Shown one piece after another: positions 39,001 through 42,000 of a stretch of 64,000 nt of DNA; positions within the stretch are counted from its first letter, which is position 1, and each line of letters opens with the position of its first letter. Made by a program: the position numbers. The stretch lies in assembly GCF_057098645.1 (NCBI RefSeq), contig NZ_CM169472.1, one strand, 5' to 3'.

Positions 39001-42000
39001 CTCTTACTTATAATAAAGAGGATGATTTCCTGTATGCCACCCAGAATAGCCCTGCACAGCTACTTAAAATAACCAAAAGTGGCGACATCATGGACAGAGC
39101 CCCACTGCCTTTTATCTCTGATGCCGAAACAATTGAACACATACAAGGGAACATTTTTGCTGCAGTAGACGAAAAGACTTCTGAACTATTCTTTTTTACA
39201 GTTACAAAAGATATGCATATCTCCTTTCGAAATAAAATTCAGTTAGAAAAATTCAATAAAAAGAATAGAGGGTTTGAAGGGCTGGCATGGAAAGCAGATG
39301 ATCGGATGCTGTTTGTCGCAAAAGAAAGACGCCCAAGTAAAATATTTATATATCAACTTTCTCCAGACCTGCTGAGTGTAAAGCAAGCAACTATTCCAGA
39401 GGCACTAAATGATATACGTGTTAACGATATATCCGGCCTGGCCTTTAATAATGAAAGTCTGATGATTCTGTCCGATGAATCGCGTAAATTACTCAAGTTT
39501 AACCTGACAGAGATGTCTTTCATTGAGATGCTTGACCTGACAAAAGGAAATCATTCTCTGACCAGTGATTTGCCCCAACCTGAAGGAATTGTAACTCTGC
39601 CTGATGAAAGCATTTATGTTGCCAGTGAACCTGATATCCTCGCGAAATTTGTCCCTAATAAGTAAGTCTGTCACTGGCCTTATTATTTATCGACCAAACC
39701 TGGCAATCTCATAAAGTTATAAAAATACGAGTATAATTTCACGCTAAATAAACACATTAATAGTTGAAAAGGATATCAGTTATTATCAACCAGAATCTTA
39801 CTCAGTCTATTAGTATTATCAGACTTATATTAGATCCTACAATATATTTAATTTGTATGCAGAATAGAGTGTTCACACCACATCTGGTATAGAAAAGCAC
39901 AGGCTAGCAAAAACCTGAATAACCCCGTACTTACGGAGTTATTCAGGTTAAAAATATCCATAACATCACTTCTGATTTTTATTGCTTACGACGGATATAA
40001 TTTCTCTGGTCAGCTACTAATATCATCATGCTCACGCGTTTAATCAAACTCGTGTTTCTCAAACGGACATCGCGGGACAATCTTCTGCTTCTCCCGGCGC
40101 ATTTTTTACCACCTTCGCTACCTGCATTTTGAGCGGAAGATCCGCTTTTTTCTGGCCCCCGCACATATGCAAGTCCAGTTTTAAATTTATCCTTTATTTC
40201 ATTCTGAAACAAACTGCTCATAATTTTCTCCAGTGGAACCTGCATCTCAGGGAGACATCACTACAGAATACTTCCCCTTATGCACTGATTTAATTTTGGT
40301 CATTTAGAATAACGGCCTGTAAAGTCTCAATGCAACAGATGGGTAACGCTATTATGAGGATCCTCGTCAGTAAATTACTGGCAAGGCACTCCGATAAATA
40401 AGAATAGGTTCCGCAACAACGTTATATGCAAATACCTCACGCTTCGGCTAGATTATCGCCGGCTCTGTTGACGAAATTATGGTTGAAATCTGGAGCTACC
40501 ACACGTTGTTCTGGCTGGCGATAGGGATGTTGGGTATTGCAATGATTTGCTTGCTGTTTATTAAAGATATTTAGCTCACCAGTCTGGGCTAAGAAAAATC
40601 GGCGTGGCGCAAACTGAGCCATCCTCGCCATTTTTGCTATCATGCCTGCATACATAAACGACAAAACAGTATGCAGAGGGAAAAATGGGTTCCACCAGAA
40701 AGGGGATGCTGAACGTTCTGATTGCCGCCGTGTTGTGGGGAAGTTCAGGGGTCTGCGCGCAATACATCATGGAGCAAAGCCAGATGTCGTCGCAGTTTTT
40801 GACTATGACGCGTTTGATATTCGCCGGTTTGATTCTGCTGACGCTATCATTTGTTCATGGTGATAAAATCTTTTCTATTATTAACAATCACAAAGATGCC
40901 ATTAGCCTACTGATTTTTTCCGTGGTTGGCGCGCTAACCGTACAGCTCACTTTTTTGCTAACCATCGAAAAATCGAACGCAGCCACGGCAACGGTGCTGC
41001 AATTCCTCTCACCGACTATTATCGTCGCCTGGTTCTCACTGGTGCGTAAATCCCGCCCGGGCATTCTGGTTTTCTGCGCTATTTTGACATCGCTGATCGG
41101 GACTTTTTTATTGGTGACACACGGTAATCCGACGTCATTATCGATCTCTCCTGCCGCGTTATTCTGGGGCATTGCCTCGGCATTTACTGCTGCATTCTAT
41201 ACCACCTATCCCTCAACGCTGATTGCCCGCTATGGCACGTTACCGGTCGTCGGCTGGAGTATGCTCATTGGCGGTCTGATCCTGCTGCCCTTTTATGCCG
41301 GACAAGGGACAAACTTTGTCGTTAACGGAAGTTTGATTCTGGCGTTTTTTTATTTGGTGGTCATTGGTACGTCCCTGACATTTAGTCTGTACCTGAAAGG
41401 AGCACAATTAATTGGCGGTCCAAAAGCCAGCATTTTAAGCTGTGCTGAACCATTAAGTAGCGCGCTGCTCTCTTTGCTGTTGCTGGGGATCACCTTCACA
41501 TTGCCGGACTGGCTGGGAACGCTGCTGATTCTGTCATCGGTGATTTTGATTTCAATGGATTCCCGCCGCCGCGCCAGAAAAATAAATCGTCCGGCGCGGC
41601 ATGAGTGAGAATTACCAGCCAGGCACCGCACCACCGTTAAAGATGGTTTCTGCCGCTTTAGCGACTTCGGGTGATTGATAAGATTGCAGAAATTCCTTCA
41701 CGTTTTCTGCATTCTTATTATCTTCCCGTGCCACCAGAATATTCACATACGGCGAATTTTTATCTTCAATAAATACGCTGTCGTTAACCGGAGAAAGTCC
41801 TGTTTGCTGGATGTAAGTGGTGCTGATAATCGCTACATCCACTTTCGGGTCGTCCAGTACACGTGGCAACTGTGCCCCTTCCAGCTCCATTATCTGCAAA
41901 TGGCGTGGATTATCGGTTATATCCAACGCGGTAGGTAATAACCCTTTTCCCTCTTTCAGAGTAATTAGCTTCTCTTTTTGCAGCAGTAAAAGCGCGCGAC

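Follow-up and report, generated by a model that had tools for sequence, protein, structure and literature searches.

The locus studied here lies in a window of 64,000 nucleotides (the whole stretch analysed, from contig NZ_CM169472.1 of assembly GCF_057098645.1), whose sequence is that of E. coli O157:H7 (100% identity). In our ORF list, the last gene of the LEE, rorf1, occupies 38847‒39665 on the plus strand, and RefSeq annotates its product in the identical O157:H7 sequence as an SdiA-regulated domain/YjiK-family protein. Between the end of rorf1 at 39665 and the start of yicL at 40685 lie 1019 bp without an intact gene (39666‒40684). An earlier note on this DNA had described a gap of ~1 kb without a long ORF and had given the K-12 order as selC, setC, yicL; the ORF list and the RefSeq annotation bear out the former, and comparison with K-12 bears out the latter. 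Aligned to its homologs, the gap reads from left to right as the 3′ flank of rorf1, the end of a GNAT gene with its terminator, the head of tssB with its upstream region, setC codons 58‒76, and setC codons 338‒394.

The leftmost piece, 39666‒39821, is the rorf1 3′ flank common to LEE lineages. In the alignment to other LEE right ends that the earlier note had proposed, positions 38801‒39821 match the O103:H2 and 2011C-4251 LEEs at 88%, and the homology ends at 39821. At this point lies the first joint, J1 (39816‒39821), where two blastn segments against L134, the sequence that holds the GNAT pseudogene flank adjoining the LEE of strain 2011C-4251, overlap by the 6 nt TTATCA (one segment runs to L134 position 5044, the other starts from 6001). 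Relative to pheV-type LEE lineages, ~956 bp are missing at J1, which carry a hypothetical ORF of 278‒291 aa according to the gene tables of L134 and L007. The 291-aa ORF found at this place in other LEE lineages gave no Pfam match.

To the right of J1, positions 39816‒40125 align at 88.2% with 6001‒6313 of L134, and ~80 further genomes match at 80‒90%. The LEE flank of strain 2011C-4251 adjoins the glc operon, not selC. Within this alignment, 39816‒39911 (minus strand) corresponds to the spacer downstream of the GNAT terminator and is LEE-linked in other lineages. Blastn, tblastn, and PF14542 identify 40010‒40125 (minus strand) as the 3′ part of a yjdJ-like GNAT acetyltransferase pseudogene, comprising ~codons 53‒90 and the stop codon at 40010‒40012. 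Positions 39918‒40125 are 73‒79% identical to yjdJ plus the hairpin downstream of yjdJ in blastn, 23 of 31 residues are identical to GNAT residues 60‒90 in tblastn, and the fragment matches PF14542 at profile positions 51‒80 of 80; the longer, uninterrupted fragment in L134 matches this profile at 3.6e-20. The homology to the C-terminal part of the domain is in register with the stop codon and the terminator. From the last ~38 codons through the stop codon to the hairpin behind it, the piece is collinear with yjdJ-type GNAT genes and likewise with the GNAT pseudogene that lies beside other LEEs. On the other hand, the fragment here is cut at ~codon 53 by its fusion to tssB and is not located at the chromosomal yjdJ locus. 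A functional GNAT gene was rejected, since only ~codons 53‒90 of the ~90-aa domain remain and the frame in O157 is broken by an internal stop and by one extra nucleotide at 40102. The end of a yjdJ-like GNAT gene and its terminator, on the minus strand, travel with the LEE in other lineages as well.

The inverted repeat pointed out in the earlier note is present, located at 39912‒39949 rather than at 39910‒39945, with 18-nt arms that are 94% complementary and 2 nt apart. It folds into a 17-bp stem with a dG of -28.8 kcal/mol (z = -5.7), and none of 200 shuffled sequences folds as well. On the minus strand, this stable, A+U-rich stem is directly followed by UUUUU and lies ~60 nt past the GNAT stop codon, as in a rho-independent terminator; relative to rorf1, it lies ~250 nt downstream. 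A simple terminator scanner called only a small neighboring hairpin (39917‒39900), not the 39912‒39949 stem. Both yjdJ in strain Z135-2 and the GNAT pseudogene in L134 are followed by a hairpin with the same conserved core. From the inverted repeat, the folding, and this conservation, we predict that the hairpin is the old intrinsic terminator of the GNAT gene, inherited with it; as it is conserved downstream of yjdJ-type genes, this origin would account for it fully. A dispersed repeat (REP, ERIC) was rejected because the hairpin is a single copy in the window and its relatives are only GNAT downstream regions. Esr41 or another known EHEC sRNA was also rejected, since Esr41 is located in OI-43 and the sRNAs of OI-148, Arl and sRNA350, lie elsewhere in that island (PMC8565820).

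The GNAT fragment is fused to the 5′ part of tssB, the gene for the small subunit of the type VI sheath, on the same strand. The alignment to tssB of strain C5 and tblastn delimit a pseudogene of ~codons 1‒47 at 40126‒40221, with the ATG at 40221‒40219, and the tssB upstream region at 40222‒40341, which contains an SD (GGAG, 40231‒40228) and aligns to 121 bp upstream of C5 tssB. Over 40117‒40341, identity to the 5′ end and upstream region of C5 tssB is 77% (235 nt aligned), and 8 of 9 and 22 of 37 residues are identical in tblastn (E 2e-10). PF05591 and TIGR03358 match the relic at fitting N-terminal profile positions, weakly and below the cutoff, as expected for 26 residues. Homology to both the N-terminus and the upstream region is present. 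Past codon 9 the relic has lost 8 bp (at 40196/40195), and an in-frame stop follows. The putative -10 box, TATAAT in strain C5, reads TA-AAT here with 1 bp lost, which may reflect decay of the tssB promoter. At the joint with GNAT, J2 (40117‒40125), the blastn ranges 39918‒40125 and 40117‒40341 overlap, and present-day GNAT and tssB homologs share AAAC[T/A]GCTGGTTGC at 13 of 14 nt. A TssB gene or T6SS locus was rejected, since a full tssB of ~165 aa, tssC, and the core genes are missing and the relic stops at ~codon 47 where the GNAT homology begins. The tssB and GNAT origins of the debris had gone unrecognized in the earlier note.

In strain C5, tssB heads a full T6SS cluster, while strain 28Eco12 carries a lone tssB homolog in a Tia-PAI-type selC island of the order selC-int-tia-leoCBA...tssB...rhuM'-setC. 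The relic resembles both at ~77% DNA identity over the start, 47 codons, and 120 bp upstream, and it has the same orientation relative to setC as the 28Eco12 homolog. It differs from both in keeping only 47 of ~165 codons and in having no tssC or other T6SS gene after it. Identity to any E. coli tssB is 74‒77%. A search for a closer donor with an exact 26-mer across 100,044 species genomes found nothing, and a degenerate peptide-derived pattern found at least 120 loci in the same genomes, none above ~76% over 60‒80 nt among the matches listed.

Chromosomal backbone resumes at joint J3 (40341/40342), where the setC homology starts. While the earlier note had reported no setC here, and indeed no intact copy is present, the gene is not wholly absent; setC is internally deleted and 5′-truncated rather than gone. 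Fragment A (40342‒40398, plus strand) covers codons 58‒76, with 87% identity to K-12 setC nt 172‒232 in blastn and 15 of 19 residues identical in tblastn. Fragment B (40401‒40574, plus strand) covers codons 338‒394 and the stop codon, with 52 of 57 residues identical in tblastn, a TGG-to-TAG change at 40449‒40451 in the K-12 alignment, and a match to the sugar-efflux profile TIGR00899 at positions 320‒375 of 375 (E 4.8e-21). Between them lies J4 (40399‒40402), an internal, out-of-frame deletion of ~780 bp (codons 77‒337) with a 3-nt overlap: K-12 segments 2159‒2219 and 2998 onward map to window positions 40342‒40402 and 40400 onward, and tblastn places the two fragments in different reading frames. 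The proposed alignment to K-12 selC-setC-yicL gives the same picture, with identity from 40400 on, inside setC, preceded by the 57 nt of fragment A. The setC-yicL intergenic region with the yicL promoter region (40575‒40684, plus strand) is intact and collinear with K-12, with one substitution.

Compared with K-12 setC (yicK), a gene for an MFS sugar-efflux transporter, the two fragments are collinear and in the same orientation, and the setC-yicL spacer is intact; in contrast, the promoter and codons 1‒57 and 77‒337 are missing, and the frame change and the TAG stop are added. Homology at the syntenic position upstream of yicL identifies the gene. A functional SetC was rejected, since an ORF of ~394 codons, 12 transmembrane segments, and its own promoter are replaced by two out-of-frame pieces and a TAG. 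That the remnant is a pseudogene is already known: RefSeq annotates it as an "MFS transporter" pseudogene with an internal stop and a missing N-terminus. SetC is lost in all strains with this junction, and yicL retains its own upstream region. The right boundary of LEE/SpLE4/OI-148 has reportedly been published (Perna, 1998; Hayashi, 2001). In the Sakai record, SpLE4 ends at 4624439, which is window position 40417; the gap itself corresponds to Sakai 4,623,688‒4,624,706, with an offset of 4,584,022 from window coordinates. This annotated end lies essentially where the K-12 homology resumes, whereas the backbone is actually back at 40342, at setC codon 58. Thus ~520 bp at the right end of the annotated island (39822‒40341) are debris of non-LEE genes, not LEE core.

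Both small ORFs described in the earlier note exist as quoted. The 31-aa hydrophobic ORF (40479‒40574, plus strand) has exactly the quoted sequence and corresponds to SetC codons 364‒394, the last transmembrane helix; it starts at the internal Met364 of SetC and has no SD upstream. By alignment, it is the C-terminal tail of SetC. It lies within the RefSeq "MFS transporter" pseudogene feature and was rejected as a genuine small-protein gene, its conservation being that of setC alone. The minus-strand ORF at 39979‒40245 has 88 aa from the ATG at 40245 and 80 aa from the tssB ATG at 40221, and only residues 9‒17 are in the tssB frame. Frame analysis suggests a chance read-through rather than a gene: the ORF would arise because the tssB start codon and SD survive, and the 8-bp deletion would shift the frame into one that is open by chance through the GNAT debris. 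Since an ATG-started ORF of at least 88 aa occurs in ~10% of first-order Markov random sequences of the same length and composition, the ORF is not statistically remarkable. In EPEC E2348/69, 377323_2f, FHI_NMBU_03, and Z1323PEC0011, a 1-bp indel at 40102 leaves only 61 aa (53 counted from the tssB ATG) and changes the C-terminus. It was rejected as a genuine small-protein gene because close relatives do not keep its frame and it matches no Pfam or NCBIfam family. RefSeq also lists a 35-aa "hypothetical protein" (WP_115801858.1/ECs_4592; 40059‒40166, minus strand), which the annotation and frame analysis suggest to be a spurious tssB-frame remnant running into GNAT debris; in EPEC-type genomes its annotation bears the flag "frameshifted". 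As the tssB SD and ATG are intact and a strong predicted terminator lies downstream, any transcription entering from the right could yield a short chimeric peptide.

Of 5426 complete E. coli genomes, 383 carry the whole gap with all four joints at 99% conservation or higher, among them O157:H7, O55:H7, O145:H28, and EPEC O127:H6. Across five lineages, the 1019 bp hold ~12 variable sites. Recent common ancestry or transfer would predict as much conservation, which therefore does not by itself exclude function. The identical four joints in EPEC O127:H6, O55:H7/O157:H7, and O145:H28 would imply a single origin of the selC-LEE junction. A flank of 3.3 kb that is also shared hints at spread by recombination, although less specifically, because the same haplotype occurs in LEE-negative strains such as Nissle 1917.

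We consider 39666‒40684 very probably a deletion scar without function, located where the selC-integrated LEE ends on the right and made of five fragments and four illegitimate deletion joints, which may have formed by microhomology-mediated deletion. The earlier description thus holds in part: the gap, the ORFs, and the K-12 order were confirmed, and the hairpin coordinates and the absence of setC were not. Its reading of the region as junction remnants is supported, as the debris is traced to setC, tssB, and GNAT fragments. Its other reading, unannotated small proteins, is not supported, since the 31-aa ORF is the SetC tail and the frame of the 88-aa ORF is unstable in 99%-identical relatives.

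A functional product from any part of the gap is unlikely. The chimeric ORF might be a young, lineage-specific small-protein gene formed de novo from debris, starting at the tssB ribosome-binding site and ending at the GNAT hairpin. The intact GGAG 6 nt upstream of the ATG at 40221, the strong predicted terminator 30 nt past the ORF stop, and the first 47 codons from the ATG at 40245, common to five lineages (with one substitution in 377323_2f), would fit such a gene. However, the C-terminal half is completely different between lineages because of the 1-bp indel in a homopolymer run, the length is unremarkable, and no Pfam or NCBIfam match and no promoter-like site on the minus strand upstream of the ORF were found, the presumed -10 box lacking one base. 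Promoter and terminator scans called sites no more often than scans of shuffled sequence. The Sakai RIBOseq novel-gene tables (PMC5597208), which cover few culture conditions and for which intergenic ORFs may not have been sought where ECs4592/ECs4593 were already annotated, have no entry in 4613498‒4643862 and none for ECs4592/4593. We regard a de novo gene as very improbable. Also very improbable is a LEE-flank regulatory element, either a minus-strand non-coding RNA ending at the hairpin or a plus-strand 3′ stabilizer or terminator of the espG-rorf1 transcript. The stability of the hairpin, the UUUUU next to it on the minus strand, its position behind rorf1, and the presence of Arl and sRNA350 in OI-148 make this conceivable, but the hairpin is already explained as the GNAT terminator, and on the plus strand it lacks the U-tract of an intrinsic terminator because the stem is followed by AAAAAUAUCC. 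An Rfam scan of 39400‒40900 at a permissive E-value gave only chance-level matches to irrelevant families (E of 1.2 or more, below the gathering scores), the junction coordinates have no match in the Hfq-CLIP supplements (PMC4104026), and reviews list no sRNA at this position (PMC8565820). A literature search for ECs4592/Z5144 and for setC/yicK with LEE found no description of the junction. That the debris is transcribed and translated into a lineage-specific basic microprotein (counted from the tssB ATG, 80 aa in O157:H7/O145:H28 but 53 aa in EPEC) or yields a minus-strand sRNA, with some LEE-side role, is likewise a very slim prospect.

As to the history of the scar, the tssB relic (the first ~47 codons and ~120 bp upstream) most likely derives from a T6SS-bearing island that formerly lay between the LEE and setC. 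It is possible, though doubtful, that the tssB piece instead belonged to a composite mobile element that carried the LEE (LEE, GNAT, and T6SS) and decayed after arrival, with no older resident at selC. The GNAT piece is LEE-linked at another LEE insertion site and is fused directly to tssB here, and a foreign donor common to tssB and the LEE would fit the identity of 74‒77% to any E. coli tssB. Against such an element, an IS3 element and no tssB follows GNAT in one examined LEE lineage with GNAT outside selC, and the tssB relic occurs in 383 genomes, the same number as the full selC-side scar including the setC joint. Moreover, the LEE-negative selC island has its tssB homolog in the same orientation and position relative to setC, and the order selC-933L-LEE-debris-setC fits an earlier resident that subsequent integrations next to selC displaced towards setC. 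We therefore favor a former T6SS-bearing island as the source of tssB.

Since both small ORFs are by-products of pseudogene debris, the finding is an ordinary one of modest import, and its main value is as a record of LEE history. The database genes ECs_4592/WP_115801858.1 and ECs_4593 and the 88-aa ORF would be three artefacts of pseudogene debris, a useful caution for small-ORF searches at island junctions. The boundary between foreign DNA and backbone lies at 40341/40342, inside setC, and the conserved LEE flank ends near 39821. A yjdJ-like GNAT gene seems to have accompanied the right end of the LEE into two or more integration contexts, and the selC-type LEE would abut the relic of a T6SS-type island, such as still occur at selC in other E. 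coli.

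Only 1019 bp (39666-40684) lie between rorf1, the gene at the right end of the LEE, and yicL, in agreement with the gap of about 1 kb given in the earlier note. A search of complete E. coli genomes matched 39600-40750 to O157:H7 chromosomes at 100% identity. The RefSeq annotation of this identical sequence places espG upstream of the gap, rorf1 at 38847-39665 (an "SdiA-regulated domain" protein), a hypothetical protein of 35 aa in the gap (minus strand), and, before yicL, an "MFS transporter" pseudogene with an internal stop and a missing N-terminus. yicL, nlpA, yicS, and nepI follow in that order, as in the Sakai record. 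The K-12 gene order is selC, rhuM remnant, setC, and yicL, and setC is thus found between selC and yicL, as the earlier note states. The rhuM pseudogene fragment is kept between selC and setC in K-12 (locus L002, 1430-1591), 28Eco12 (locus L129, 36984-37111), and other LEE-negative strains, and is itself what remains of an earlier island at selC. Neither this rhuM segment nor any of the first 171 nt of setC is present in the window.

The statement that setC is missing was not borne out, since tblastn and blastn with K-12 SetC and setC place two pieces of the gene in the gap. SetC residues 58-76 are encoded at 40342-40398 (15/19 identical) and residues 338-394, in a different frame, at 40401-40571 (52/57 identical, one stop). 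At the nucleotide level, K-12 setC nt 172-232 correspond to 40342-40402 and the 3′ part begins at 40400, giving a 3-nt overlap. Alignment to K-12 likewise shows homology starting at ~40400, inside setC, with TGG changed to TAG at 40449-40451, and a fragment-level profile search matches the SetC fragment to TIGR00899. In nearly all of the 5426 complete E. coli genomes, the match to the query starts no earlier than 40400-40403 and is annotated as setC and yicL. What the gene has lost is the promoter with codons 1-57 and, in a separate loss, codons 77-337. The hydrophobic ORF of 31 aa (40479-40574, plus strand) is the C-terminal end of SetC starting at Met364, with a single substitution. This ORF is conserved, but solely as part of setC, and no Shine-Dalgarno sequence precedes it. 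On the opposite strand, the Sakai record has ECs_4593, a 68-aa "hypothetical protein" (40437-40643, minus) that lies antisense to the 3′ remnant of setC and to the spacer before yicL. ECs_4593 is almost certainly a spurious carry-over from older annotation, since PGAP does not call it in other O157 genomes.

When 39666-40400 was searched by sensitive blastn against all complete E. coli genomes, the region split into unrelated pieces matching other LEEs (39666-39821), a yjdJ-type GNAT acetyltransferase gene (39918-40125, 73-79% identity), tssB (40117-40341, 74-77% identity), and setC (40342-40398). The reading of the small ORFs as junction remnants is right. According to gene tables, the GNAT and tssB homologues both run along the window's minus strand. 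The former match takes in the final ~116 nt of the gene and ~90 nt downstream, and the latter the first 113 nt of the gene and 121 nt upstream. Fragment-level profile matches agree (PF14542 for GNAT, PF05591/TIGR03358 for tssB). Alignment to the intact tssB of E. coli C5 reveals that the ATG (40221) and its GGAG are kept, that 8 bp are deleted after codon 9, and that one base is missing from the TATAAT of TTGAGA-18-TATAAT, a putative promoter upstream of C5 tssB.

Both small ORFs are present exactly as the earlier note described them, the 88-aa ORF at 39979-40245 on the minus strand. It starts at the tssB start or 8 codons upstream and has only nine residues in common with TssB, after which it runs out of frame through tssB and GNAT debris to end 31 nt past the GNAT stop. 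This out-of-frame reading follows from the alignments and from tblastn, in which a stop separates TssB residues 1-9 from residues 11-47, each set in a frame of its own, and GNAT residues 60-90, with an internal stop, fall in a third. The length of the 88-aa ORF is not unusual, since ~10% of Markov-random sequences of the same size and composition contain one as long or longer (ATG start).

The inverted repeat noted beside this ORF is present, at 39912-39949 rather than 39910-39945, with 18-nt arms. The minus-strand RNA folds into a 17-bp stem (-28.8 kcal/mol) followed by UUUUU, with a stability z of -5.7 and none of 200 shuffles as stable. Its core is conserved 3′ of yjdJ, suggesting that the hairpin is the GNAT terminator. 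An Rfam scan of the region gave no match to a known RNA family.

A further 80 or so genomes contain 39816-39927 at 80-90% identity. In strain 2011C-4251, the order is rorf1, a 291-aa hypothetical ORF, a spacer, the hairpin, a GNAT pseudogene uninterrupted over 60 codons, and an IS3 element, beside the glc operon; this LEE flank therefore does not adjoin selC. The window aligns to this locus over 39816-40125 (88.2%) and, on the rorf1 side, over 38801-39821, and the two alignments overlap in TTATCA (39816-39821). Compared with 2011C-4251, the O157 LEE lacks ~956 bp bearing the 291-aa ORF. Since this flank carries the GNAT piece away from selC, the GNAT tail and terminator are part of an ancestral LEE right flank common to different integration contexts. 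The 278-291-aa ORF between rorf1 and the terminator (L134, the 2011C-4251 locus, 5081-5956; L007, the O103:H2 locus, 2706-3542) is absent from the O157/EPEC1 selC-type LEE, is carried by LEE lineages inserted elsewhere, and has no Pfam match. This ORF may represent an effector or a LEE-flank gene, as yet uncharacterised.

As many genomes (383) contain the tssB relic at ≥99% identity as contain the full scar with its setC joint, and the relic is 74-77% identical to intact tssB in ~209 others; among the matches listed in scans of species-representative genomes there was no closer relative. The tssB of C5 is at the head of a complete T6SS cluster carried on an island. In 28Eco12, tssB stands alone, has the same right-hand neighbours, and is found within the selC-setC interval, oriented as in the window, in a Tia-PAI-type island (selC, integrase, tia, leoCBA ... 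tssB ... rhuM′, setC). The most economical reading is that the relic comes from an older T6SS-type selC island, since newer integrations at selC push older ones towards setC. Deletions would have reduced this island and fused its remainder to the GNAT flank of the LEE at one end and to setC at the other. Alternatively, tssB may have come as part of a composite LEE element. The joints suggest microhomology-mediated illegitimate recombination, because the present-day homologues share 13/14 nt at the GNAT/tssB joint (AAAC[T/A]GCTGGTTGC) and the other joints show 6-nt and 3-nt overlaps. Elsewhere in the window, 4345-4388 is a 44-nt degenerate copy of the selC (tRNA-Sec) 3′ end, running into selC-downstream backbone (84% to K-12), and is probably the attR-side repeat left by the cryptic prophage 933L between selC and the LEE. 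ARAGORN found no tRNA in the window, which, with this copy, fits the order selC, 933L prophage, LEE that Perna is said to have described in 1998.

The whole 1019 bp, with all joints, is found at ≥99% identity in 383/5426 complete E. coli genomes, including O157:H7, O55:H7, O145:H28, and EPEC-type strains such as the prototype EPEC O127:H6 E2348/69. Five lineages compared over the gap differ at only ~12 sites, one being a homopolymer run at 40102 with an indel of 1 bp. The 88-aa ORF is present in O157:H7 and O145:H28, while in E2348/69, 377323_2f, FHI_NMBU_03, and Z1323PEC0011 the ORF is 61 aa long (53 aa when counted from the tssB ATG) and its C-terminus is unrelated, and the RefSeq 35-aa protein is flagged "frameshifted" in these genomes. 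Of the two small ORFs, conservation in relatives thus holds for the 31-aa one, within setC, and fails for the 88-aa frame. Profile searches gave no protein-family match for either product, and a promoter scan found no promoter-like site before the 88-aa ORF. The suggestion of unannotated small proteins is accordingly not supported. The Sakai RIBOseq novel-gene tables, from few culture conditions, have no entry between 4613498 and 4643862 and none for ECs4592 or ECs4593 (PMC5597208), and the Hfq-CLIP supplements have none at the gap coordinates (PMC4104026). We consider it very improbable that a functional product is expressed here, be it from the chimeric ORF or as a minus-strand RNA.

From 40400 to ~43650 (setC′, yicL, nlpA, yicS, and part of nepI), O157:H7 and E2348/69 differ by ~0.6%, whereas each differs from K-12 by ~6%. 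Their similarity ends abruptly within nepI (about 43650-43900), past which all three differ by the usual ~2%. The O157-type haplotype is ≥99% identical in 831 genomes, including the LEE-negative Nissle 1917, and the K-12-type haplotype (90-95% identity) occurs in 3905. The flank is a deep dimorphism beside the selC hotspot, compatible with the LEE, scar, and flank having moved between lineages by homologous recombination. Neither K-12 nor E2348/69 has a counterpart of 44217-45056, between nepI and yicN. This segment, which contains Sakai ECs_4597/ECs_4598 (hypothetical protein, transcriptional regulator), is a small strain-specific replacement.

The identification of the gap pieces as tssB and GNAT seems undescribed in the literature searchable here, but findings of this kind are well known, and for the setC remnant an annotation already exists. 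The original observation was essentially correct, and the gap is ordinary, a graveyard of pseudogenes where an island ends.
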